The position numbers were made by a program, and so were the translations under genes. From Clostridia bacterium (GTDB lineage: Bacteria > Bacillota > Clostridia > Oscillospirales > CAG-272), in NCBI GenBank assembly GCA_017532425.1, contig JAFXJH010000019.1, positions 1,029 to 65,028 on the forward strand: a DNA stretch of 64,000 nt, given 5' to 3'. Shown in pieces: positions 2,897 to 63,958 of this stretch. Position 1 is the first letter of the stretch, and each line of letters begins with the position of its first letter. The notes under the pieces were generated by a model. The model was not told the DNA's origin. It did no database searches and saw only the letters and a list, made by a program, of their open reading frames with translations.

Positions 2897-5785
2897 ATGA
2901 AATTAAAACAGCTTATCTGCTTTTCGTGGAATGAAGAGGATAAAGTAAAAGGCTTTCATGTTTTTGCGCAAAGCAAGGGAATAGACGAGCGCGATATATA
3001 CGCGATAGCATCCCGCCTTGCATATCGCCCGTCGGATAATCTTACCTCCGAAACGGTCAAAAATCTTGCTGAAACGTCAAGACTTCTCGGATATCCGAAA
3101 AAAGGCGATAACGGACTTCATTTTGCGGTACAGCGCGAAATAGATTCGACATTCCCTACAGACTGCGCGTTCTTTACACTTCCGTCGGGTCTGCTTTGCT
3201 GTGCAAAGGTTACTTATTGCGGCGTCGATTATCGACTTAACGTATGGGGAAACTATATAATTCACGCGTATATCTTCTCGTATGACCCTAAAATATCCCC
3301 TGCGTCGATACTGCTCTCACAGAAATTCAAAACGCACCTCACGGCAGATGATCTCAAACCGTCAAGAACACAGCCGTATATTCCCGAAATAGAGATAACA
3401 GAGCCGCTCTCTAACGTAGATGCACTTGCGAAGCTTGTAAAAGCAAGAGGCGCGGGTACTCTTTCAAGAATTCTTGACTGCGTTTTTGCCGCAGTAAGAA
3501 GAGATATGGACATATATATAAACGCGCCCGAAAAGGATATCCTCTTCTGGATGCTTGCCTGCGAAACTCTGCTTCCGCACGATATAACGATGCTCCTTTC
3601 CTTCTCGACCTGTCGCTTTTCTCAGGAGGATGGCTCACCATTCAGAATAAAGCATATAATTTCAAAGCTCGGAAGTCATTATGCGTACAAGCTTTCGTCT
3701 TCCGATAACACGCATATATCTATCGACCCCAAAAACGCGATATTCTCGGATAGCGCAAGTAAGCTTCAGCTTTCGGGACTTATCACCTGCTTGCTTCTTA
3801 CTGCACCCGAGGAAATAGAGGTCATACGCTCGCTTATAGGTACTTACGTAAAGACGCACGGTGTAATCGATTCGGACGAGATATGTCTGATATATCGCCT
3901 TGCGCGTACAGATATATACGACGGAATATCCGAAATAGAGCTGTGCGAGACCTTAAAGGACGTCGTTCTTCGCTCGTTCGGATACGATACGGTCGATAAG
4001 GTGATCGAAAAATATCTCGCCACGACGGCGGACGGATCTTTTAAAATAAAGCTCTACGGTCATCTTGCGGCATATCATTCGCGCCCCGAGCAGATAATGA
4101 CGAATATGTTTTACCGTATAATGCGCGAGCTTTCGGACGGTAGGATGACGGCTGCAGAGGCGCTTGATAAGCTCTTTGAAGAGCCGTTTGGAAAAGAAAC
4201 GGTAAAATATATTATAGATACCCTTGACACAAGATACGAGCTCTTTGAGTTCGGAATGTCTGAGGGAACTACAAGAAGCTTTATATATAAGCTGCTTTTC
4301 TCGGGATTTTACGATCTCAAGGAAGAGGGCTCCGCCGATATGCTCATAAGGCTTATACCGGCGGCTGTGAAATATGAATCGGAAAGAGATAACAGCGTTC
4401 CCGAATGTATCACAGAGCTTATCGCGGTGGTTGAATTTGACGAGAGTATATACCGCAGAGTCATATACGGATACTATGATTATTGCCGCTCGGATCTTAA
4501 AGAATTTGTGGGATGGTGCGGACTTATAACTCTTCTTTTCGAGCAGGGAAGAAAGCTCAATTCGGAGGCGGGGATCACCACCTTTATAATAAGAGAGCTT
4601 GAACACGGAAGCCTGCTTGAATATATGAAGACGGGAAGCGAAGAGACGGTGACCGTGCTCACCCTTCTTTCGATGCTTCGCAGATGCGGTGCGCTGTCCG
4701 AAAAGGCTCACGCGAATTTTATATACGATAAATTCAGAGATTTTCTCAGATATTCTGCTGATTGCGACGTGATCTCTCTTGTTATAGACGGTCTGAAAAA
4801 CGAAAATGAAAGACTTGTGGAGGCTCTTTCGCAGTATTCCGGGGCGGATAAGGGTCTTGCGCTTGAGGTTTATAAAAACAAGGTCAGCCGTACACGCTCG
4901 GCAGACAAAAATCTGCTCAGTGCGATGCACGAAAGCGATATACGATATATAGGCGAGTCAATAGTGTCGGCGCGCATAACCTCTTGGGAGAGCTTTATTT
5001 CTTACCTTAAGGATTGGTACGTAAACGGAAAATACAATAAATGCTTCCAGAGAGCGTTCCAAAGAGCATTTTCCGACTGCCTTGAAAATGAAAGCTGGTA
5101 CTTTATAAACGAAGTGTTCTCTATCTGCAAGAGTAGATTTTCGACGTCCGAAAGGGGAGATCTCGATCTTCTGATAAAGATCCTCGATACCAATATCGGC
5201 TCGTATATCGGTAAGGAAACAAATCTTCTTCAGCTGCTTTCGGATATAAAGAAGCTGAGCGGAAGCCTGCCCACGGCATTGGAGCTTGTTATCGAAACAG
5301 AGCTGACACTTATAGGAAAGAGCGATATTTTTCTCCCCGTGTCGATAAGCTTTGTTCAGACGGCAAGCGACACCTTGAAAAATACGTACGTCAAGGTGTA
5401 CGGTACACGCCTTGTAGACCTTTGCGTGGGAGCATCGGACAGCGAAACGATATCCTCGGCTGTATGGCTCGTCGTTCTTGCATCTGACGGAAATACCTTT
5501 GCAAATATCGTGAAATATATCTCGCGCCTTGCGAGCGGATCGGTCAGAATAATACTCGGAAGAGTAATTTCCGCAGGTCTTATAGATGAAGATAAGATAA
5601 AAGTCGAGAATATGATACTCTCTCTGTCGAGGACAATGAAAACGTCAGATTATCTGATGCTTCGAAAGAACGTTTCCTCAAAGCATCAGAATATAAAATA
5701 CGATATAATTTTCGACAGAGTAGAGGAAAGCTTCGGAATTATAGCAAAGCGAAAGCTTGCGCTGATGCGTAAGGATCATAAATGA
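2897..5785 (+). CDS. Large uncharacterised protein (962 aa); the N-terminal ~130 aa resemble a GAP1-N-type domain and the rest looks helical
   Basis: ATG at 2897 is preceded by GGAAAGGAGG (2875-2884); the ORF-track start at 2873 is a TTG inside that RBS. N-terminus: MKLKQLICFSW..KGFHVFAQSKGI..FPTDCAFFTLPSG..YCGVDYRLNVWGNYIIHAYIF. No P-loop, HExxH, DEAD or other catalytic motif was recognised by eye. Confidence 0.6.
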   Translation: MKLKQLICFSWNEEDKVKGFHVFAQSKGIDERDIYAIASRLAYRPSDNLTSETVKNLAETSRLLGYPKKGDNGLHFAVQREIDSTFPTDCAFFTLPSGLLCCAKVTYCGVDYRLNVWGNYIIHAYIFSYDPKISPASILLSQKFKTHLTADDLKPSRTQPYIPEIEITEPLSNVDALAKLVKARGAGTLSRILDCVFAAVRRDMDIYINAPEKDILFWMLACETLLPHDITMLLSFSTCRFSQEDGSPFRIKHIISKLGSHYAYKLSSSDNTHISIDPKNAIFSDSASKLQLSGLITCLLLTAPEEIEVIRSLIGTYVKTHGVIDSDEICLIYRLARTDIYDGISEIELCETLKDVVLRSFGYDTVDKVIEKYLATTADGSFKIKLYGHLAAYHSRPEQIMTNMFYRIMRELSDGRMTAAEALDKLFEEPFGKETVKYIIDTLDTRYELFEFGMSEGTTRSFIYKLLFSGFYDLKEEGSADMLIRLIPAAVKYESERDNSVPECITELIAVVEFDESIYRRVIYGYYDYCRSDLKEFVGWCGLITLLFEQGRKLNSEAGITTFIIRELEHGSLLEYMKTGSEETVTVLTLLSMLRRCGALSEKAHANFIYDKFRDFLRYSADCDVISLVIDGLKNENERLVEALSQYSGADKGLALEVYKNKVSRTRSADKNLLSAMHESDIRYIGESIVSARITSWESFISYLKDWYVNGKYNKCFQRAFQRAFSDCLENESWYFINEVFSICKSRFSTSERGDLDLLIKILDTNIGSYIGKETNLLQLLSDIKKLSGSLPTALELVIETELTLIGKSDIFLPVSISFVQTASDTLKNTYVKVYGTRLVDLCVGASDSETISSAVWLVVLASDGNTFANIVKYISRLASGSVRIILGRVISAGLIDEDKIKVENMILSLSRTMKTSDYLMLRKNVSSKHQNIKYDIIFDRVEESFGIIAKRKLALMRKDHK

Positions 5786-6585: not shown

Positions 6586-8364
6586 TTATTCCTTAACAAT
6601 AGCAATACCGAGGTCGCGGTAAGCCTGCTCGTCTGCGGGAGCGGGGCACTGCGACATGGGCTCGGAAGCGTTCTGTACCTTCGGGAAGGCAACAACGTCG
6701 CGAAGGCTTTCTGCACCCGACATTACCATTGTAAGACGGTCAAGACCCATACCCGAGCCACCGTGAGGCGGAGCACCATACTTGTAAGCGTCAACGAGGA
6801 ATCCGAACTTTGCGGCGATCTCTTCCTTCGTGAGTCCGAGAGCGTCAAACATCTTCTCCTGAAGCTTCCAGTCGGTGATTCTGATAGATCCCGAAAGGAG
6901 CTCGACTCCGTTGAGTACGAGGTCATATGCCTTTGCACGGACTGCGCCCGGATCGCTTTCGAGAAGGGGCAGACATTCTTCCATAGGCATCGTGAAGGGG
7001 TGATGCATAGCATCCCAGTGCTGTGTCTCTTCGTTCCATTCGAAGAAGGGGAATTCTGTGATCCATACGAAATTGAACTTGTCGGGAATCATAGAAAGCT
7101 GCTTTGCGATCTTGAGACGGAGCGCGCCGAGTACGGGAAGTACTACGCGGTTAGCGTCTGCAACGATAAGAGCAACGTCGCCGCGACGGCAGTCGATACT
7201 CTCCATGATAGCGTTAAGTGTTTCGGGAGAAATGAACTTTGCAAAGGAGCAGTTGGGTGTCTCGTCAACGAATCTGATGTATGCAAGACCCTTTGCGCCG
7301 ATACCCTTTGCGTGCTCTGTGAGCTTGTCGATCTCTTTTCTCGAAAGGGTAGAAGCACCGCCCTTGACAACGATAGCGCGAACGCTTCCGCCGTTATTAA
7401 CAGCACCCTCAAATACTCCGAATCCCGAAGCAGCTACAATATTCGAAATATCCTGTATCTCCATACCGAAGCGTGTGTCGGGCTTGTCAGATCCGTAGCG
7501 CGACATAGCTTCCGCATAGGTCATACGGGGGAGAGGAAGCTCGAGCTTTACACCGAGTATTTCATCGAAAAGCTTTGCCATAAGACCTTCGTTTATGTTC
7601 ATTACGTCTTCCTGCGTTGCGAAAGACATTTCAAAGTCGATCTGTGTGAATTCGGGCTGACGGTCTGCACGAAGGTCCTCGTCACGGAAGCAACGTGCAA
7701 TCTGAATGTATCTGTCATATCCCGCGATCATAAGAAGCTGCTTGTAGATCTGGGGAGACTGAGGAAGCGCGTAAACGCATCCCTTGTGGATACGCGAGGG
7801 AACGAGATAGTCGCGTGCGCCCTCGGGAGTAGCCTTTATCATCATAGGTGTTTCGATTTCTGTGAAGTTGTTCGAATAGAAGTACTGACGCGCGATGCGA
7901 GTGATCTCGTTACGCATAAAAATGTTCTTCTGAAGCGCGGGACGGCGAAGGTCGAGATAACGGTACTTGAGCGCGATCTCTTCACCTGCATTGTAGTTTT
8001 CACCGATCTCGAAGGGAAGGGTGTCAGCCTCGGAAAGAACCTTCATAGAGGTAACGAAAATTTCGATCTCGCCGGTGGGAATGTTCTTGTTTACCGAAGA
8101 ACGTGCTCTTACGCTTCCTTTTGCGGAAAGAACGTACTCGCTGCGGCAGGTGAACGCCTTCTCAAAAACTTCCTTGTCTGTAGCATCGTCGAATGCGAGC
8201 TGAACTATACCGCTCTTGTCGCGAAGGTCGATGAAGATAAGGCTTCCAAGGTCGCGGCGGCGCTGTATCCAACCGCAGACGGTAACCTCTTTGCCTATAT
8301 CAGAGGTGCGGAGCTCTCCGCAATATACTGTTCTTTTGTCATCTTTTGTAAAAAATTCTGCCAA
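6586..8364 (-). CDS. aspS: Aspartate--tRNA ligase
   Basis: 592 aa. OB-fold N-terminus (VTVCGWIQRRRDLGSLIFIDLRDKSGIVQL). Class II motifs FRDEDLRADRQPEFTQID and GGSGMGLDRL. Confidence 0.95.
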   Translation of the reverse strand: MAEFFTKDDKRTVYCGELRTSDIGKEVTVCGWIQRRRDLGSLIFIDLRDKSGIVQLAFDDATDKEVFEKAFTCRSEYVLSAKGSVRARSSVNKNIPTGEIEIFVTSMKVLSEADTLPFEIGENYNAGEEIALKYRYLDLRRPALQKNIFMRNEITRIARQYFYSNNFTEIETPMMIKATPEGARDYLVPSRIHKGCVYALPQSPQIYKQLLMIAGYDRYIQIARCFRDEDLRADRQPEFTQIDFEMSFATQEDVMNINEGLMAKLFDEILGVKLELPLPRMTYAEAMSRYGSDKPDTRFGMEIQDISNIVAASGFGVFEGAVNNGGSVRAIVVKGGASTLSRKEIDKLTEHAKGIGAKGLAYIRFVDETPNCSFAKFISPETLNAIMESIDCRRGDVALIVADANRVVLPVLGALRLKIAKQLSMIPDKFNFVWITEFPFFEWNEETQHWDAMHHPFTMPMEECLPLLESDPGAVRAKAYDLVLNGVELLSGSIRITDWKLQEKMFDALGLTKEEIAAKFGFLVDAYKYGAPPHGGSGMGLDRLTMVMSGAESLRDVVAFPKVQNASEPMSQCPAPADEQAYRDLGIAIVKE

Positions 8365-22579: not shown

Positions 22580-22597
22580 GAGAATTTTCAAACAAAA

Positions 22598-22958
22598 CAC
22601 CGTCATATCAAACGATACGACGGTGCGTAGGAAGACAAAATATTTTAGAAAATCCGGTAGCCAAGGAAAGGGGATTGGAGTCTGAGGAAAGGGGAAAAAC
22701 TTCGGCGTTTGAGATGGTTTTTCCCTTTCCTCAGTCAAACAGAACGATTTTGTCTGCATTTTACACCGTCATATCAAACGATATGACGGTACGTACGGAA
22801 GACAAAATATTTTAGAAAATCCGGTAGCCAAGGAATGGGGGTAGGAGTCTGAGAAAAGGGAAAAAACTTCGGCATTTGAGATGGTTTTTCCCATTCCTCA
22901 GTCAAACAGAACGATTTTGTCTACATTTTATACCGTCATATCAAACGATATGACGGTA
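22598..22958. repeat. 166-167-nt structured tandem repeat (2 full units plus a third copy of the leading hairpin)
   Basis: The hairpin ACCGTCATAT-caaacg-ATATGACGGT occurs at 22598-22625, 22765-22790 and 22931-22958. Each unit also has a closing stem AGACAAAAT/ATTTTGTCT and internal GGGAAAAAC/GTTTTTCCC hairpins. Confidence 0.85.
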
Positions 22959-53744: not shown

Positions 53745-54524
53745 ATGGGAAGAATGCTCGGAGCTTTCGATTCGGATAATGACAACGATCGTCCCGATCT
53801 TAATAAATGCCCCGATTGCGGATGCTTTTTCGCGCAGGACAACTGTCCTCTTTGCGGAAAGCTTTGCCCCGAGGAAATGAGAGCGGGCAACCGCAAGGCT
53901 GTAAAGGCAAAGAAAAAAAGAGGCGGATATTCTTCGGGCAGGGTGACCTTTGTCGAGTGGTATCACAGCTGGTGGTTTATCATTCTTATGATGCTCGTTA
54001 TGCCTATCGTGGGTATAATCCTGCTTATCACAAGTCCGCATAAAAAATCGCTCAAGATAGCCCTTATCGCGGTAGCCGTTCTTATAGCTATGCTTCCGAC
54101 GATACTGTTCGCAGTGTACGGCTTTTTGCTTAGTACCTTTGACAGTCCGATCGATACGTCAAAAAGCAGGGAAGAATATATCGAAGCGTGCCAAAGCGTG
54201 GACGCAGAGGAATATTACCGTATGGCGGATACTTATACGGGAAAATTCGTTTCGATAACCCTGAAGATCAAGGAAAAATTCACGGACGGCGATGCTTACA
54301 CGGGTGATAAGTACACTACGCATTACCTTTGCACGGATACGGACGGAAAAGAACTTCGCTTCATAATAAGAGACTGTATTCAGGACGGCTCGCAGAACTT
54401 TATCGCAGGCGACGTTATAACCGTTTACGGCGAGGGTGCGGGAAATTATTCGGTTTACGATGAAAATTACGATCTCCGTAGCGCTCCCGGAATCTTCGTG
54501 GCGTACGTTAAGATCGTGGAATGA
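53745..54524 (+). CDS. Zinc-ribbon membrane protein, unknown function
   Basis: N-terminal CPDCGCFFAQDNCPLCGKLCP, then two TM helices, then an ~130-aa extracytoplasmic domain. Confidence 0.6.
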   Translation: MGRMLGAFDSDNDNDRPDLNKCPDCGCFFAQDNCPLCGKLCPEEMRAGNRKAVKAKKKRGGYSSGRVTFVEWYHSWWFIILMMLVMPIVGIILLITSPHKKSLKIALIAVAVLIAMLPTILFAVYGFLLSTFDSPIDTSKSREEYIEACQSVDAEEYYRMADTYTGKFVSITLKIKEKFTDGDAYTGDKYTTHYLCTDTDGKELRFIIRDCIQDGSQNFIAGDVITVYGEGAGNYSVYDENYDLRSAPGIFVAYVKIVE

Positions 54525-54534
54525 ATTAAGTAAC

Positions 54535-54569
54535 AAAAAACTCTTGGAAACTGTCTTCCAAGAGTTTTT
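54535..54569. terminator. Rho-independent terminator
   Basis: AAAAAA-CTCTTGGAA, loop actgtc, TTCCAAGAG-TTTTT. Confidence 0.8.
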
Positions 54570-54573
54570 CTTT

Positions 54574-54866
54574 GTCGGAAACCCTTTTTTCAAAAAGGGT
54601 TTCCGACACCTTCCCAAAAACTTTACTGAAAAAGAAAGAAGAGACTTTTTTTAAGAAAAGTTTTTGGAGTTCCAAGAACCTTTTTTCAAAAAGCTCCTTT
54701 GCGTTTTTTGCAAAGTTTTTTGGGGAAGATAATCCCCTCTCACCTGCTTCGCAGGAGCTCTCCTGAAGGGAGAGCCTTCAAGTTTTTATTTTCAGCAAAG
54801 TTTTTGGAGTTCCAAGAACCTTTTTTCAAAAAGGTTCTTGGCAGGATCCAAGGACAGAGTCCTTGG
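54574..54866. repeat. Hairpin-module repeat cluster, locus A
   Basis: Perfect hairpins at 54574-54607 (16 bp), 54812-54841 (14 bp) and 54848-54866 (8 bp). An exact 37-nt repeat occurs at 54657-54693 and 54797-54833. Linkers at 54614-54633 and 54789-54807 are inverted copies of each other. Confidence 0.85.
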
Positions 54867-54868
54867 CG

Positions 54869-55963
54869 TTACTTCAGAATTTCAAGTAAGATCTTTGCAG
54901 CTTCGCGCATAGTGAGCTCGCCGTCGGAAATGCCTGATACGCTTATCGATTCCTTGCAGATATACGAAGCCATTTCGAGCGCCTTGGCAGAGGTGAGAAT
55001 ATCGATCTCAGAGTCGGATATTTCGCCGAAAACAGAGATAACGTCGTTCTCGTCGTCGGGAAGAGAAAGTCCGGCGGCAGCCATAGCCATTATGGCAAAT
55101 TCGTCATAGGAAACAGCCTTATCGGGCTCAAAATAGCTGTATTTTCCGATAGTTTTTCCGACGTAGATGCCCTTGTCGGCAAGGAGAAGAGCATCGTATT
55201 TGAATTCGCTTCCGAGGTCAACGTAGCTGATGGTGGGCGCTTTTTTTACGTCAAGCGATACGCTTATGATATCGGACGCGTTGCCGTAGCAGTCGGTCAC
55301 AATATAGGAAAAAGAATCCTCGCCCACGGCGTTTTTGTCGGGAGTATAGACAAATTTTCCGCTTGACGGATCATCGAGAGTGAGCTTCCCGTGAGAGGGG
55401 CGAGATACGATAGAAAAGGTGACGCTGTCGCCGTCGGGGTCGCGCGCGGAGAGATAGTCAATGCGGTCAATTCCCGCGTAGGCGGATACCACCTTCGAGG
55501 ATGCGCTCGGCGCAAAGTTGAGAGTGTCGGTGAATTTTATCGTGCAATCGATAACACGGGGATATCCCGAGGAGATGCATCCGAAAACGAAGGAGGCATC
55601 GTCTACAGACTCGCTTGCAGGGATAAATACCAGCTTTGAGAGCTTGCTTCGGGGGATTATCTGATTTGCAAGGACGGGCACTTTGCCGAGCATAAGCTTT
55701 CCGTCGGCAGAATCGGGAAGAATAAGGATAGTTATGCTGGCAAGACGGGAGCTGCCGATACATTCTTCAAATTCGTCGGTGTCAAAGCTTACTCGGCTTC
55801 CGCGCATGCCGTTTTTGGTGAAGACCGTGTTTTGCGCAAGATTGTCAATAGCGGGTGAAAGACTTTCCTTGGCGTGAGCGGCACACGGGATGATGAGAGC
55901 GCTGAAAATAAGCGAGATAAAAATAATTGAGGTCAGAATTTTGAATAAACGGGATTTTTTCAT
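54869..55963 (-). CDS. Secreted protein with cadherin-like/Ig-like domain and a possible SLH-like C-terminus
   Basis: Signal peptide MKKSRLFKILTSIIFISLIFSALIIPCAAHA. Contains DPDGDSVTFSIVSRPSHGKLTLDDPSSGKFVYTPDKNAVGEDSFSYIVTD. The C-terminal FEPDKAVSYDEFAIMAMAAAGL resembles an SLH motif. Confidence 0.6.
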   Translation of the reverse strand: MKKSRLFKILTSIIFISLIFSALIIPCAAHAKESLSPAIDNLAQNTVFTKNGMRGSRVSFDTDEFEECIGSSRLASITILILPDSADGKLMLGKVPVLANQIIPRSKLSKLVFIPASESVDDASFVFGCISSGYPRVIDCTIKFTDTLNFAPSASSKVVSAYAGIDRIDYLSARDPDGDSVTFSIVSRPSHGKLTLDDPSSGKFVYTPDKNAVGEDSFSYIVTDCYGNASDIISVSLDVKKAPTISYVDLGSEFKYDALLLADKGIYVGKTIGKYSYFEPDKAVSYDEFAIMAMAAAGLSLPDDENDVISVFGEISDSEIDILTSAKALEMASYICKESISVSGISDGELTMREAAKILLEILK

Positions 55964-61256: not shown

Positions 61257-62543
61257 ATGGAAAAGATAGTTATTAACGGCTCAAGGCCGCTTAACGGTGA
61301 AATTGAAATAGGCGGAATGAAAAACGGAGCACTTCCGATAATATTCGCCGCACTCCTTGTAACGAAGGGTGTTTCTGTTATAGAAAATCTGCCCGCTGTC
61401 AAGGACATCGATCTTTCTCTTGAAATAATAGAAAGCCTCGGTGCAAAGGTAGACCGCATAGATAAGCATACCGCAAGAATAGACGCAACGTCGGTAAAGG
61501 TGTCCGAGCCTCCGGCATCTCTTGTGAGAAAGATGAGAGCATCCTATTATCTTCTCGGAGCAGAGCTCGGAAGATTCGGTGAGGCTGTCGTTCAGTATCC
61601 GGGCGGATGCGATTTCGGCGGACGTCCGATAGACAGACATATCAAGGGCTTCGAAACCCTCGGTGCAACGGTTACGGAAACCTTCTCTGAAAGCGGAAAA
61701 TGCGTAAGAGCTGTGACCGAGGGCGGTGTTGTCGGAGCAAACGTCTTCTTTGATGACGTTTCGGTCGGTGCAACCATAAACGTAATGCTCGCCGCGGTTA
61801 CCGCCAAGGGTCTTACAATAATTGAAAACGCTGCAAGAGAGCCTCACGTTGTTGACCTTGCAAACTTCCTCAATACCTGCGGCGCAAAGGTAATGGGCGC
61901 GGGTACTCCCACTATAAAGATAACCGGAGTCGATAAAAACGAGCTCCACGGATGTACATATACGGTCGTTCCCGATATGATAGAGGCGGGCACTTATATG
62001 GTGGCAGCCGCCGCAACGGGTGGAAGCGTACTCATAAAGAACGTTATCCCGAAGCACCTTGAAGCAACCTCTACAAAGCTCGCCGAGATGGGCGTTAAGA
62101 TAGTGGAAAATGACGACAGCGTCGAGGTCAGCGTTCCGTCGGGACTTAACGCAACCAATATCAAGACTCTTCCGTATCCGGGTATCCCGACCGATATGCA
62201 GCCTCAGTTCTGCGTGCTTATGTGCGTTGCAAACGGTGTAAGTAAGCTCGTAGAGGGTGTTTTCGACAACAGATTCCAGTACGTCGATCAGCTCAGAAAT
62301 ATGGGTGCTTCCATCGAAGTAAACGGTCGCGTGGCTACTATAAGCGGCGGATCGCCTCTTTACGGCGCAGCTGTCAATGCATCCGACCTCAGAGCGGGCG
62401 CGGCTATGATAATCGCGGGACTTGCCGCTAACGGAAAGACAGAAATTGAAAATATCAATTATATTAACCGCGGTTATGAGGATATAGTTGAAAAGCTTTC
62501 GGCTGTCGGAGCAGATATCGCTCTTGTAAACGTAGAAGACTAA
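61257..62543 (+). CDS. murA: UDP-N-acetylglucosamine 1-carboxyvinyltransferase
   Basis: 428 aa. Contains GGMKNGALPIIFAALL, active-site loop YPGGCDFGGRPIDRH, and PYPGIPTDMQPQF. Confidence 0.95.
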   Translation: MEKIVINGSRPLNGEIEIGGMKNGALPIIFAALLVTKGVSVIENLPAVKDIDLSLEIIESLGAKVDRIDKHTARIDATSVKVSEPPASLVRKMRASYYLLGAELGRFGEAVVQYPGGCDFGGRPIDRHIKGFETLGATVTETFSESGKCVRAVTEGGVVGANVFFDDVSVGATINVMLAAVTAKGLTIIENAAREPHVVDLANFLNTCGAKVMGAGTPTIKITGVDKNELHGCTYTVVPDMIEAGTYMVAAAATGGSVLIKNVIPKHLEATSTKLAEMGVKIVENDDSVEVSVPSGLNATNIKTLPYPGIPTDMQPQFCVLMCVANGVSKLVEGVFDNRFQYVDQLRNMGASIEVNGRVATISGGSPLYGAAVNASDLRAGAAMIIAGLAANGKTEIENINYINRGYEDIVEKLSAVGADIALVNVED

Positions 62544-62572
62544 AAAATCCGGAGCTTGCTCCGGATTTTTTG
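62542..62572 (+). terminator. Rho-independent terminator of murA
   Basis: AAAAAATCCGGAG, loop cttg, CTCCGGATTTTTT. Confidence 0.85.
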
Positions 62573-62576
62573 GCAA

Positions 62577-62863
62577 AGGGAACTTTTTGGAAAAAGTTCC
62601 CTCTGCACACCCTCAAAAACTTTGCTGAAAAGAAGAATTTTAGGGGCGAAATTTATGGGCAGTACCATTAGTTTTTTTCTTTAATAAAGTTTCTTGAAAT
62701 TCCTAGGAACTTTTTGAAAAAAAGTTCCCTCCGGACTCCTTCAAAAGCTTTGCAGAAAAGAAAAAATCATATTGAAGTCTACAAATCGCCCCTTTACTTT
62801 TTGTCTTTCCTTTTGAGAAAAGTTTTTGAAGTTCTTAGAAACTTTTTACAAAAAGTTTCTAAG
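62577..62863. repeat. Hairpin-module repeat cluster, locus B
   Basis: Hairpins at 62577-62602 (12 bp), ~62704-62731 (imperfect) and 62834-62863 (14 bp). The linkers are homologous to those of locus A. Confidence 0.85.
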
Positions 62864-62987
62864 CGGGATCCAAGGGCAGAGCCCTTGGCGGGATTCAAGG
62901 GCAGAGCCCTTGGCGGGATTCAAGGGCAGAGCCCTTGGCGGGATTCAAGGGCAGAGTCCTTGGTGGGTTTCAGGGCAGAGCCCTGAG
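62864..62987 (+). repeat. 25-nt tandem hairpin array (4 full units plus 1 degenerate unit)
   Basis: The unit cgggatTCAAGGGCagaGCCCTTGg occurs at 62864, 62889, 62914 and 62939. A degenerate unit spans 62964-62987. The array ends 2 nt before the GAAAGGA RBS of the next gene. Confidence 0.9.
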
Positions 62988-62998
62988 AAAGGATAAAA

Positions 62999-63958
62999 AT
63001 GAGAACACTTACGGTTAATAAAAACGATGCGGGACAGAGGCTGGATAAATTTCTGTCGAAGGCAGTGCCGACGCTTCCGGGATCGCTGATGTATAAGCTC
63101 ATAAGAACGAAGAAGATAAAGGTCAACAGAAAGCGCACGGAGCATACCTATTTTCTGTGCGAGGGCGATACGGTCGAGCTGTTCATTAAAGAAGAATTTT
63201 TTGAAAATACGGTAGAAACGAGCGCGCTGAAGCTGACACCGCATATAGATATAATATACGAAGACGAAAATATAATGCTCTGCGATAAAAGAGCAGGGAT
63301 GATAGTTCATTCGGACGATAAAGAGAGCACGAATACGCTGATATCGCATATTACGGCGTATCTCTATCAGAAGGGCGAATACGATCCGAATAAAGAAAAC
63401 TCGTTTGCGCCCGCACTGTGTAACAGAATAGACAGAAATACGGGCGGAATAGTTATAGCGGCAAAAAACGCGCAGACCCTTCGTATAATGAACGAAAAGA
63501 TAAAGAACAGAGAACTTAAAAAGAAATATCTTGCCGCGGTTCACGGGATTTTCAAGGAAAAAGAAGGACTTCTGAAGGGATACCTTATAAAAGATCAGAA
63601 AACCAATACGGTAAAGGTATTTGAAGTACAGCCGAAATTCGGCGATGCGAAGAAGATAGTTACGGGATACCGCGTTGTTGCCGAAAAAAACGGTCTTTCG
63701 CTGCTTGAGGTCGACCTCATAACGGGACGTACTCATCAGATAAGAGCTCATATGTCATCGATAGGACATCCGCTGCTTGGCGATGGAAAATACGGCGTAA
63801 ACAGAGAGGATAAGCAGAGCGGATATAAATATCAGGCACTTTATTCGTATTGCCTTGAATTTTGCTTTACGGGTGACTCGGGAATACTTGAATATCTGAA
63901 TGAAAGGAAATTCGAAATAAATGAAGACAAGATCTGGTTTTGCAGAGAATTTCAGTAA
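62999..63958 (+). CDS. RluA-family pseudouridine synthase (S4 domain plus catalytic domain)
   Basis: Contains CNRIDRNTGGIVIAAK and HQIRAHMSSIGHPLLGDGKYG. Confidence 0.9.
   Translation: MRTLTVNKNDAGQRLDKFLSKAVPTLPGSLMYKLIRTKKIKVNRKRTEHTYFLCEGDTVELFIKEEFFENTVETSALKLTPHIDIIYEDENIMLCDKRAGMIVHSDDKESTNTLISHITAYLYQKGEYDPNKENSFAPALCNRIDRNTGGIVIAAKNAQTLRIMNEKIKNRELKKKYLAAVHGIFKEKEGLLKGYLIKDQKTNTVKVFEVQPKFGDAKKIVTGYRVVAEKNGLSLLEVDLITGRTHQIRAHMSSIGHPLLGDGKYGVNREDKQSGYKYQALYSYCLEFCFTGDSGILEYLNERKFEINEDKIWFCREFQ

Follow-up and report, generated by a model that had tools for sequence, protein, structure and literature searches.

Hairpin modules in two intergenic spacers

The 64-kb window analysed here, by which is meant the whole stretch of 64,000 nucleotides of the Clostridia contig, has two intergenic loci that are built from copies of a modular hairpin element. 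Locus A (54573-54866) is a convergent spacer, lying between the gene at 53745-54524 and the minus-strand gene at 54869-55963, the product of which is a Big_9/cadherin-like protein, and locus B (62577-62984) lies between a murA-like gene and a rluD-like gene. Three modules make up locus A, namely a single design of hairpin, a linker that is found as AAAGTTTTTGG and as the complement of it, and a triloop hairpin that is small and GC-rich; in the main hairpin a variable outer stem is topped by an apex of C-T5-NN-A5-G, referred to below as the T-apex. An earlier reading of the window, made without database searches (the sequence-only reading), had reported that these modules recur at 62577-62987, and this is indeed what is found, locus B having three each of the hairpins and linkers, together with 4.9 tandem copies of a 25-nt hairpin.

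The basic unit begins with a linear 5' motif, (TA)AAAGTTTTTG, and a short purine-rich bridge. This is followed by the hairpin, the outer stem of which is variable yet complementary, with the T-apex and a loop that is usually TC, and often by a third part, the short GC-rich triloop hairpin, which can be repeated in tandem. The polarity of the unit is fixed, the orientation of the hairpin relative to the linker being constant.

It is apparent that the pattern of modules in loci A and B is non-random. The 64 kb contain 19 perfect hairpins of at least 10 bp, against 0-2 in shuffles, and the T-apex design accounts for five of the 19, all five of them inside the two loci. Seven copies of the linker within 3 mismatches are found in loci A and B where 0.02 are expected, and a composite pattern, in which linker and apex are combined, is matched five times in the window with an expectation of 0.00 (none in 100 shuffles). 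Both strands fold far better than shuffled sequence, the z-scores being -10.7 (plus strand) and -9.7 (minus strand) as RNA, and -10.9 as DNA.

The stems of these hairpins covary. The units of loci A and B are ~80% alike with every stem difference compensated, and when units of both window loci and of relatives are aligned, the stem is seen in five distinct sequences, all of them with perfect complementarity. Covariation extends to all eight of the stem positions that are unconstrained when 150 hairpins are aligned without gaps; 95.2% of stem cells are paired compared to 73.1% in shuffles, and double-sided stem changes number 546 against 163 expected, values reached by 0 of 500 shuffles, and when the register is slid the pairing drops to 41-74%. 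Of 143 distinct copies 109 have a TC loop and only 6 a GA loop. Internal single mismatches on the AAAGTTTTTG-bearing strand, counted without favouring wobble pairs, are G.T or T.G in 25 cases and A.C or C.A in 8 (p = 0.005), and this excess of wobble over A.C, together with the TC bias of the loop, means that folding is a property of one strand. The length of the hairpins is 23-36 nt and they are intergenic. Among 356 perfect hairpins in 1.28 Mb, a sample enriched by the search pattern, the T-run precedes the A-run at the apex of 198, with only 6 in the opposite order.

Anatomy of locus A and locus B

A canonical bidirectional intrinsic terminator (54536-54569) closes the gene at 53745-54524. 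It consists of an A-run, a 14-bp stem with a 6-nt loop and a T-run, and is the same one as in the relatives L123 and L124; it lies outside the repeat and marks the original end of the spacer. Next to it is hairpin H1 (54573-54608), with a perfect 17-bp stem, the C-T5/A5-G apex and a TC loop. Linker hairpin K (54614-54667) then pairs CCAAAAACTTTACTGAAAAA (54614-54633) with TTTTTAAGAAAAGTTTTTGG (54648-54667) across a 14-nt loop, its 20-nt arms being 90% complementary. Hairpin H2 (54672-54693, plus strand) is truncated to its left arm and apex, and lies within the first copy of a 37-nt string that has exactly two copies (54657-54693 and 54797-54833), the first of them without the right arm.

A block of 140 nt (54694-54833, plus strand) is missing from the relatives L121 and L122, and its boundaries can be placed anywhere inside the 37-nt direct repeat, 54657-54796 being an equivalent placement. 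It includes a terminator-like mini linker hairpin, CTTTGCG-TTTTT-TGCAAAG followed by T6GG (54697-54722, plus strand), and three small unique hairpins (54722-54780), namely GGGGA..TCCCC at 54722-54737, CCTGC-TTC-GCAGG at 54743-54755, and a third at 54757-54775 or alternatively at 54764-54780. The linker of 54614-54633 is met again inverted at 54789-54807 (TTTTCAGCAAAGTTTTTGG, plus strand, 0 mismatches), the two forming 24-nt arms that are 88% complementary. Hairpin H3 (54812-54841) has a perfect 14-bp stem and a TC loop, with orthologous copies that show compensated stems and flipped or changed loops, and the tail hairpin, CCAAGGAC-AGA-GTCCTTGG (54848-54866, plus strand), with an 8-bp stem and a triloop, stops 2 nt short of the stop codon of the minus-strand gene. 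The order within the locus is thus hairpin, linker, loop, linker, hairpin and tail, that is two units with their linker ends facing. The terminator, H1, H3, the tail hairpin, the exact 37-nt repeat with its incomplete first copy and the inverted linker had all been listed in the sequence-only reading and all lie where it put them, the 16-bp hairpin that it gave as 54574-54607 being contained in the 17-bp stem of H1.

Locus B starts directly after the canonical terminator of the murA-like gene (62542-62571), which is again outside the repeat and is kept in the relatives L125-L128. The first hairpin (62577-62602) has a 12-bp stem and a GG loop, and the linker after it, TCAAAAACTTTGCTGAAAA (62613-62631, minus strand), pairs with 62810-62829. 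The second hairpin (62704-62730), with a perfect 10-bp core at 62706-62728 and a GAA loop, is the centre of a nested palindrome of ~225 nt. Two more linkers are TCAAAAGCTTTGCAGAAAA (62741-62759, minus strand) and TTTTGAGAAAAGTTTTTGA (62811-62829, plus strand), and the third hairpin (62834-62863) has a perfect 14-bp stem and an AC loop. The tail array then follows (62863-62984, plus strand), with 4.9 copies of the 25-nt unit GCGGGATTCAAGGGCAGAGCCCTTG, leaving 14 nt between its end and the ATG at 62999 with which the rluD-like gene starts. Taken as a whole the locus is a diverged tandem array, with direct repeats of 61-65 nt that are spaced 128-132 nt apart and are 71-79% identical. The 50-nt segments between its linkers (62632-62682 and 62760-62810) share an inverted motif, AGGGGCGAAATTT and AAATCGCCCCTTT, which adds to the nested palindrome. 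A CRISPR array, which would have near-identical direct repeats of 23-50 nt with unique spacers of similar length between them, was considered for locus B and rejected, the repeats being 61-65 nt and only 71-79% identical and the tail repeats having no spacers.

A third hairpin-rich array lies in the convergent spacer at 22597-22958 of the window, where a 167-nt unit is present in 2.2 copies that are 93% identical, the folding z-score being -8.8. The array has perfect hairpins, ACCGTCATATC-AAAC-GATATGACGGT, and a long hairpin with purine-rich arms and the apex TTCGGCGTTTGAGATG. The TTCGGCGTTTGAGATG module is found again at 1843-1876 of a further locus, L130, in an array that also bears two T-apex units, and because of this shared array the two designs seem to belong to one set of modules.

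Orthologous spacers in relatives

An exact look-up of the MurA product gave no record. A metagenome scan with the Big_9 protein gave one distant relative only, so orthologous loci were taken via homologs of the Big_9/cadherin-like protein and graded by protein identity to it. The more distant relatives have short spacers at the position of locus A, 35-67 nt in L125-L127 (62%) and ~205 nt in L128 (54%), where the gene beyond the spacer differs, compared to 300 nt in the window, and these spacers carry only a terminator. The murA-rluD spacer, which holds locus B, is likewise 63-108 nt in L125-L128 against 455 nt in the window, and there are no T-apex hairpins in 79 kb of syntenic DNA of these four relatives. 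In the murA-rluD spacer of L125, at 5236, there is a single AAAGTTTTTTGG linker motif without a hairpin in an otherwise empty spacer, which may be the remnant of an older element at that site.

The closer relatives retain the terminator of the window, with variable content between it and the stop codon. In L121 (99%) the order is tail, hairpin, linker, loop, linker and hairpin, without the 140-nt block, and the 2-nt loop of the conserved hairpin is the inverse of that in the window. The plan of L121 is shared by L122 (79%), where changes in one arm of a stem are matched by changes in the other (CCAAGAACC to CTTAAGAACC), L123 (75%) has two tail copies, a 50-nt inter-linker loop and a different terminal hairpin, and L124 (73%) is mostly different. 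The source of the window is an uncultured member of the Oscillospiraceae/Ruminococcaceae, and the nearest relative among the gathered loci is L095, with 84% nucleotide identity over rluD. Judged from this series of spacers, the locus A array is a lineage-specific insertion beside a pre-existing terminator, with a turnover far faster than that of the flanking genes.

The contigs of L121 and L122 end at 4232 and 4252 respectively, in both cases in the middle of the 17-bp palindrome of H1, and numerous other matches to the family are also at contig ends; the palindromes appear to break short-read assemblies. In a separate pair of Oscillospiraceae genomes a unit of the family occupies 2914-2970 of L007, and the orthologous gene end in L008 (6190-6230) has a canonical terminator.

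Distribution and genomic context

The sequence-only reading had described the element as dispersed and proposed that its copies be counted across genomes with a regular expression. A scan for the pattern AAAGTTTTTG-N(8-24)-CTTTTTNNAAAAAG over 596 Gb, with one genome per species, finds at least 119 loci in at least 6 phyla, to be added to the two unlinked loci in the window; from base composition we estimate that ~1-10 chance matches would be expected in 596 Gb. Carriers among the matches listed are many Clostridia of gut and rumen (Oscillospiraceae, Lachnospiraceae, Christensenellaceae, Ruminococcus, Gemmiger), along with Selenomonadaceae, isolates of Acetobacteraceae (Acetobacter, Komagataeibacter, Novacetimonas, Gluconobacter, Acidocella), the Desulfovibrionaceae, with complete chromosomes among them, and further Thermodesulfobacteriota, together with Acidobacteriota, Aminicenantes, Verrucomicrobia, Lentisphaerae and one Zipacnadia genome. 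A number of the features shared by these copies are not imposed by the pattern, namely the palindromic stem beyond the apex, the TC bias of the loop, the purine-rich bridge and the tails. One tail, GCCGCCGGAGGC, is common to Desulfovibrionaceae, one Eubacteriales genome, Aminicenantes and Acidobacteriota, and another, TTTGGGGC...GCCCCAAA, to Clostridia and Acidocella. A further 29 viral or prophage contigs match, ~4 of which lack a palindrome and look like chance matches.

The form found in Acetobacteraceae is sharply bounded and ~90 nt long, with two units tail to tail that are closed by linkers. Both of its hairpins show compensated changes, it is 85-94% identical across genera, there are at most 2 copies per 8 kb, and it is also present, unannotated, on plasmids of Komagataeibacter and Novacetimonas. 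BLAST of the window element found no match in plasmids and one weak 42-nt match in phages.

Larger arrangements are also seen. In L006 (54-313) and L130 (1519-1700) the units are directly repeated in tandem, the periods being 110 and 121 nt, and in L075 (Bacillota) related hairpin arrays of ~1.3 kb and 0.55 kb (1-1310 and 6740-7276), inverted and repeating at intervals of ~500-580 nt, flank genes for a PAS histidine kinase and a SNF2-family helicase with no transposase between them. In five loci (L035, L045, L111, L143 and L016) a gene for a Mob_Pre relaxase has one version of the unit immediately upstream of it, and this unit is followed by a second hairpin, GCAAAACCTGCTTGCAGGTTGC. The small element that bears this Mob_Pre gene also encodes TnpV and an AAA_25 protein, and the unit might be part of its transfer origin region.

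With respect to the flanking genes no orientation bias is seen. Spacers between genes of the same direction have the element in sense in 24 cases and in antisense in 20, a further 22 spacers are convergent, and only 6 of 72 are divergent. No sigma-70-like sites were found at locus A or B, and the upstream composition of the copies has no conserved -10 or -35, thus the element shows no sign of a promoter of its own. Clustering of 1026 open reading frames from the gathered loci in search of a recurrent neighbour gene gave generic families only, namely UvrA/ABC ATPases, a phage terminase, and Mob_Pre with TnpV on the one small mobilisable element. Two candidate features of the unit were dropped. 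An upstream TTGATA motif that resembles a nick site, as in an HUH Rep origin, is present in only 8 of 103 copies, and an attenuator-type switch between linker and left arm is excluded as a general feature since on inspection the complementarity exists in the window copies and not in the Acetobacteraceae form.

Comparison with known repeats

The element has much in common with the REP, BIME and REPIN sequences of Proteobacteria that are associated with RAYT proteins. Both are short noncoding extragenic palindromes with covarying stems, downstream of genes and rare between divergent genes, with a copy number that varies among close relatives, and at 23-36 nt the present hairpins fall within the 20-40 nt of an extragenic imperfect palindrome of the REP kind. 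Both also form inverted doublets or clusters, here as hairpin-linker-loop-linker-hairpin in the window, L121 and L117, and tail to tail in Acetobacteraceae. The two large REP superfamilies are however defined by a GTAG or CGTC tetranucleotide tag (PMC3733652), and neither tag is present in the alignments or the upstream composition of the present copies, which have instead the conserved flank (TA)AAAGTTTTTG and the hairpin apex. In addition the tail module can be repeated in tandem, and the signature crosses phyla, unlike REP sequences which are species-specific. REP sequences number tens to hundreds of copies per genome; the 64 kb of the source genome have two loci of the present family and a related third. 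The T-apex design is not covered by the REP survey (PMC3733652).

A RAYT gene, or any IS200-type transposase, is also lacking from what was searched, so that the partner gene for which the sequence-only reading had proposed to look did not appear; tblastn of IS200-like and YafM-like queries against the window and the 1.2 Mb of gathered loci, a small part of each genome, returned nothing for Y1 or RAYT below E = 0.3.

The BOX elements of Streptococcus pneumoniae are intergenic and made of boxA, boxB and boxC modules, one of which is tandem and variable in number, with strong predicted structure and no transposase of their own. The present family is like them in each of these respects, whilst the sequences are apparently unrelated, BOX is found in one genus, and a perfect palindrome topped by T5/A5 is a specific trait of the family described here. 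The Acetobacteraceae form, at ~90-115 nt with terminal inverted repeats and one long fold, dispersed at 85-94% identity, resembles MITEs (miniature inverted-repeat transposable elements) such as Correia/NEMIS, ERIC, RUP and bcr1, but no target-site duplication or parent insertion sequence was found, and in the window there are half-units and arrays in place of complete elements, with no one pair of ends to bound them. With the palindrome-associated elements (PATEs) derived from IS200/IS605, and other elements moved as single strands by HUH enzymes, the present family shares a hairpin that is preceded by a conserved single-stranded motif and a strand that is preferred for folding; it differs in its true inverted-repeat arrangement, in that no replication-strand bias was seen and in the lack of a Y1 transposase in the loci searched.

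Intrinsic terminators are the other obvious comparison, as they too are hairpins with A-runs and T-runs at gene ends, and the elements adjoin real ones. In the element, though, the polarity is inverted, with T-run and A-run placed at the stem's top and not beside it, therefore there is no U-tract after the hairpin, and neither main nor tail hairpins are followed by a T-run. The claim of the sequence-only reading that this is not an ordinary terminator is thereby upheld, with a canonical terminator standing beside both window loci. It had also recognised no named family. This is consistent with Rfam 15, where no match at gathering score is found in the window, and a single tRNA is the only one in 20 element-bearing loci from other phyla, with the sub-threshold matches being generic hairpin matches; literature searched by sequence strings and keywords gave no description of a T-apex hairpin family. 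Structured intergenic repeats as such are already known, the T-apex family was not found described, and a signature that crosses phyla is unusual for repeats of the REP-like kind.

Origin and spread of the element

The explanation to which we would give a little better than an even chance is that loci A and B are a modular, non-autonomous, hairpin-forming intergenic repeat, of the general class that includes REP/REPIN, BOX and MITEs, which is inserted near terminators, is enlarged by duplication in place, and probably functions or moves in single-stranded form. Any account has to accommodate what is observed directly, that is modules with covarying stems and a fixed internal polarity, a lineage-specific presence with rapid turnover, and an occurrence in several phyla. 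At locus A an inverted pair of units would have entered the interval from the minus-strand Big_9 gene's stop codon to the bidirectional terminator that was already there, after which the window lineage would have gained the 140-nt block by a rearrangement bounded by the 37-nt direct repeats. Locus B may have grown likewise, through diverged tandem duplication of a ~130-nt unit and of the 25-nt tail. More generally the element would colonise terminator-proximal spacers, then expand and contract by tandem duplication and recombination between its own repeats. Spread to new sites of this kind would presumably take place in trans via a single-stranded intermediate in which the AAAGTTTTTG-bearing strand is folded, with any effects on the host, such as 3'-untranslated region (UTR) structure or insulation, probably secondary.

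That the element acts or moves as a single folded strand, and as DNA and not RNA, is the weakest part of this account. It is suggested by the fixed polarity of the unit, by a wobble bias on one strand that goes with the lack of any orientation bias relative to transcription, and by how common loops of 2-3 nt are. Such short loops on perfect palindromes, mini-hairpins of the GCGAAGC type among them, are more typical of DNA hairpins.

Mobility, which the sequence-only reading had offered as a possibility, is supported indirectly. The empty sites in distant relatives, the fast turnover and the sharply bounded copies in Acetobacteraceae speak for it, and several results weigh against it and against the account as a whole. 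No target-site duplication or consistent insertion junction was found when flanks and filled versus empty sites were inspected, and no transposase adjoins the elements in 1.2 Mb of gathered loci. Orientation relative to local GC skew, which is only a proxy for the direction of replication, shows no bias (48 on the G-rich side and 41 on the C-rich side, p = 0.5), and as transposition of the IS200/IS605 type would be expected to give such a bias its absence counts against the proposal. The tail copy number, the 140-nt block and the ~130-nt tandem units are all explicable by slippage or recombination between repeats, there are only 2-3 loci of the family within the 64-kb window of the source genome (the two loci and the related third), and the scan pattern fixes linker and apex, so that the wider diversity and the limits of the family lie outside it.

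Some of these points lead directly to a rival explanation, in which the arrays are local, non-mobile junk, with palindromes and tandem copies arising in place beside terminators by replication slippage and template switching between A-runs, T-runs and hairpin arms. Such a process would fit with the tail being present in 1, 2 or ~5 copies depending on the locus, the 37-nt direct repeats that flank the 140-nt indel, the diverged 128-132-nt tandem units of locus B, the nested palindromes and a loop that is flipped between strains that are 99% identical. It does not explain why AAAGTTTTTG, the TC-biased loop and the tails GCCGCCGGAGGC or TTTGGGGC..GCCCCAAA recur at unlinked loci in distant phyla, nor the sharp boundaries of the Acetobacteraceae copies in unrelated flanks, nor the empty sites of relatives that have the same terminators, and we regard it as unlikely.

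To the same degree we doubt that the element is a functional RNA, in the form of transcribed hairpins of 3'- or 5'-UTRs. These would make mRNA more stable, hold back exonucleases, cause ribosomes to stall close to the stop codon, or alternate between the main hairpin and a weak fold that resembles a terminator. The sequence-only reading had offered an RNA-level element as another possibility, for which there is a strand asymmetry but no orientation bias relative to the flanking genes. On the side of an RNA, wobble pairs exceed A.C mismatches on one strand, the elements are downstream of genes and rare between divergent genes, and the locus A array, lying between a stop codon and a terminator, should be transcribed; an alternative pairing of GTTTTTGG with CCAAGAAC, followed by T6, also scores as terminator-like. 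A functional transcript would, however, sit poorly with 24 sense against 20 antisense copies in same-direction spacers and with both orientations inside one locus. Nor do perfect palindromes with 2-3-nt loops, GCGAAGC-type mini-hairpins among them, the lack of a promoter-like site at loci A and B, or the lack of an Rfam family match speak for an RNA.

Less likely still is that the arrays are accessory or replacement intrinsic terminators, working as multi-hairpin insulators between convergent or tandem genes. Locus A does have six terminator-like sites against 0.9 expected, made up of the small linker hairpins and one alternative fold, the linker hairpins are laid out as A-run, stem and T-run, and the L007 unit stands exactly where L008 has its canonical terminator. 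Given these sites and this replacement, some terminator activity at the elements is possible. As an explanation of the arrays it meets the difficulty that the main hairpins have the T-run inside the stem with no U-tract after it, that locus B has zero terminator-like sites, and that a strong canonical terminator is already present at both window loci and is the sole content of these spacers in relatives. The idea that the palindromic T5-NN-A5 core is read in duplex DNA by a dimeric DNA-binding or nucleoid protein would account for an apex that is conserved whilst the stems vary and for a near-exclusive T-then-A polarity that reads identically on both strands, but it is highly improbable, as covariation at eight free stem positions requires intrastrand pairing, mismatches and loops differ between the strands, and the position relative to promoters is inconsistent.

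Each of these rivals accounts for some of the observations and is at odds with others, and the non-autonomous hairpin repeat remains the best-supported explanation. A broader proposal is that the copies belong to one undescribed superfamily of modular hairpin elements, in at least 6 phyla and on some plasmids and predicted prophages, with a signature of AAAGTTTTTG, a covarying stem with a C-T5-TC-A5-G apex and a GC triloop hairpin. This we put forward tentatively, as something that is possible and rather short of probable.

Significance

Structured intergenic repeats shape genome stability and the fate of mRNA, and in the present case the quality of assemblies as well. The elements explain hypervariable spacers and contig breaks in metagenome-assembled genomes from gut and rumen, and could possibly serve as strain markers. 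As Komagataeibacter, Acetobacter and Gluconobacter are culturable carriers, laboratory tests are feasible. A signature that is common to Clostridia, acetic acid bacteria and sulfate reducers would suggest that these groups share a factor by which the element is mobilised or bound, and phylogenetic profiling could be used to look for it. If the superfamily is real, it would either be a promiscuous mobile element that is moved by an enzyme acting on one folded strand, or be recognised by a host machine that is common to all of its carriers.

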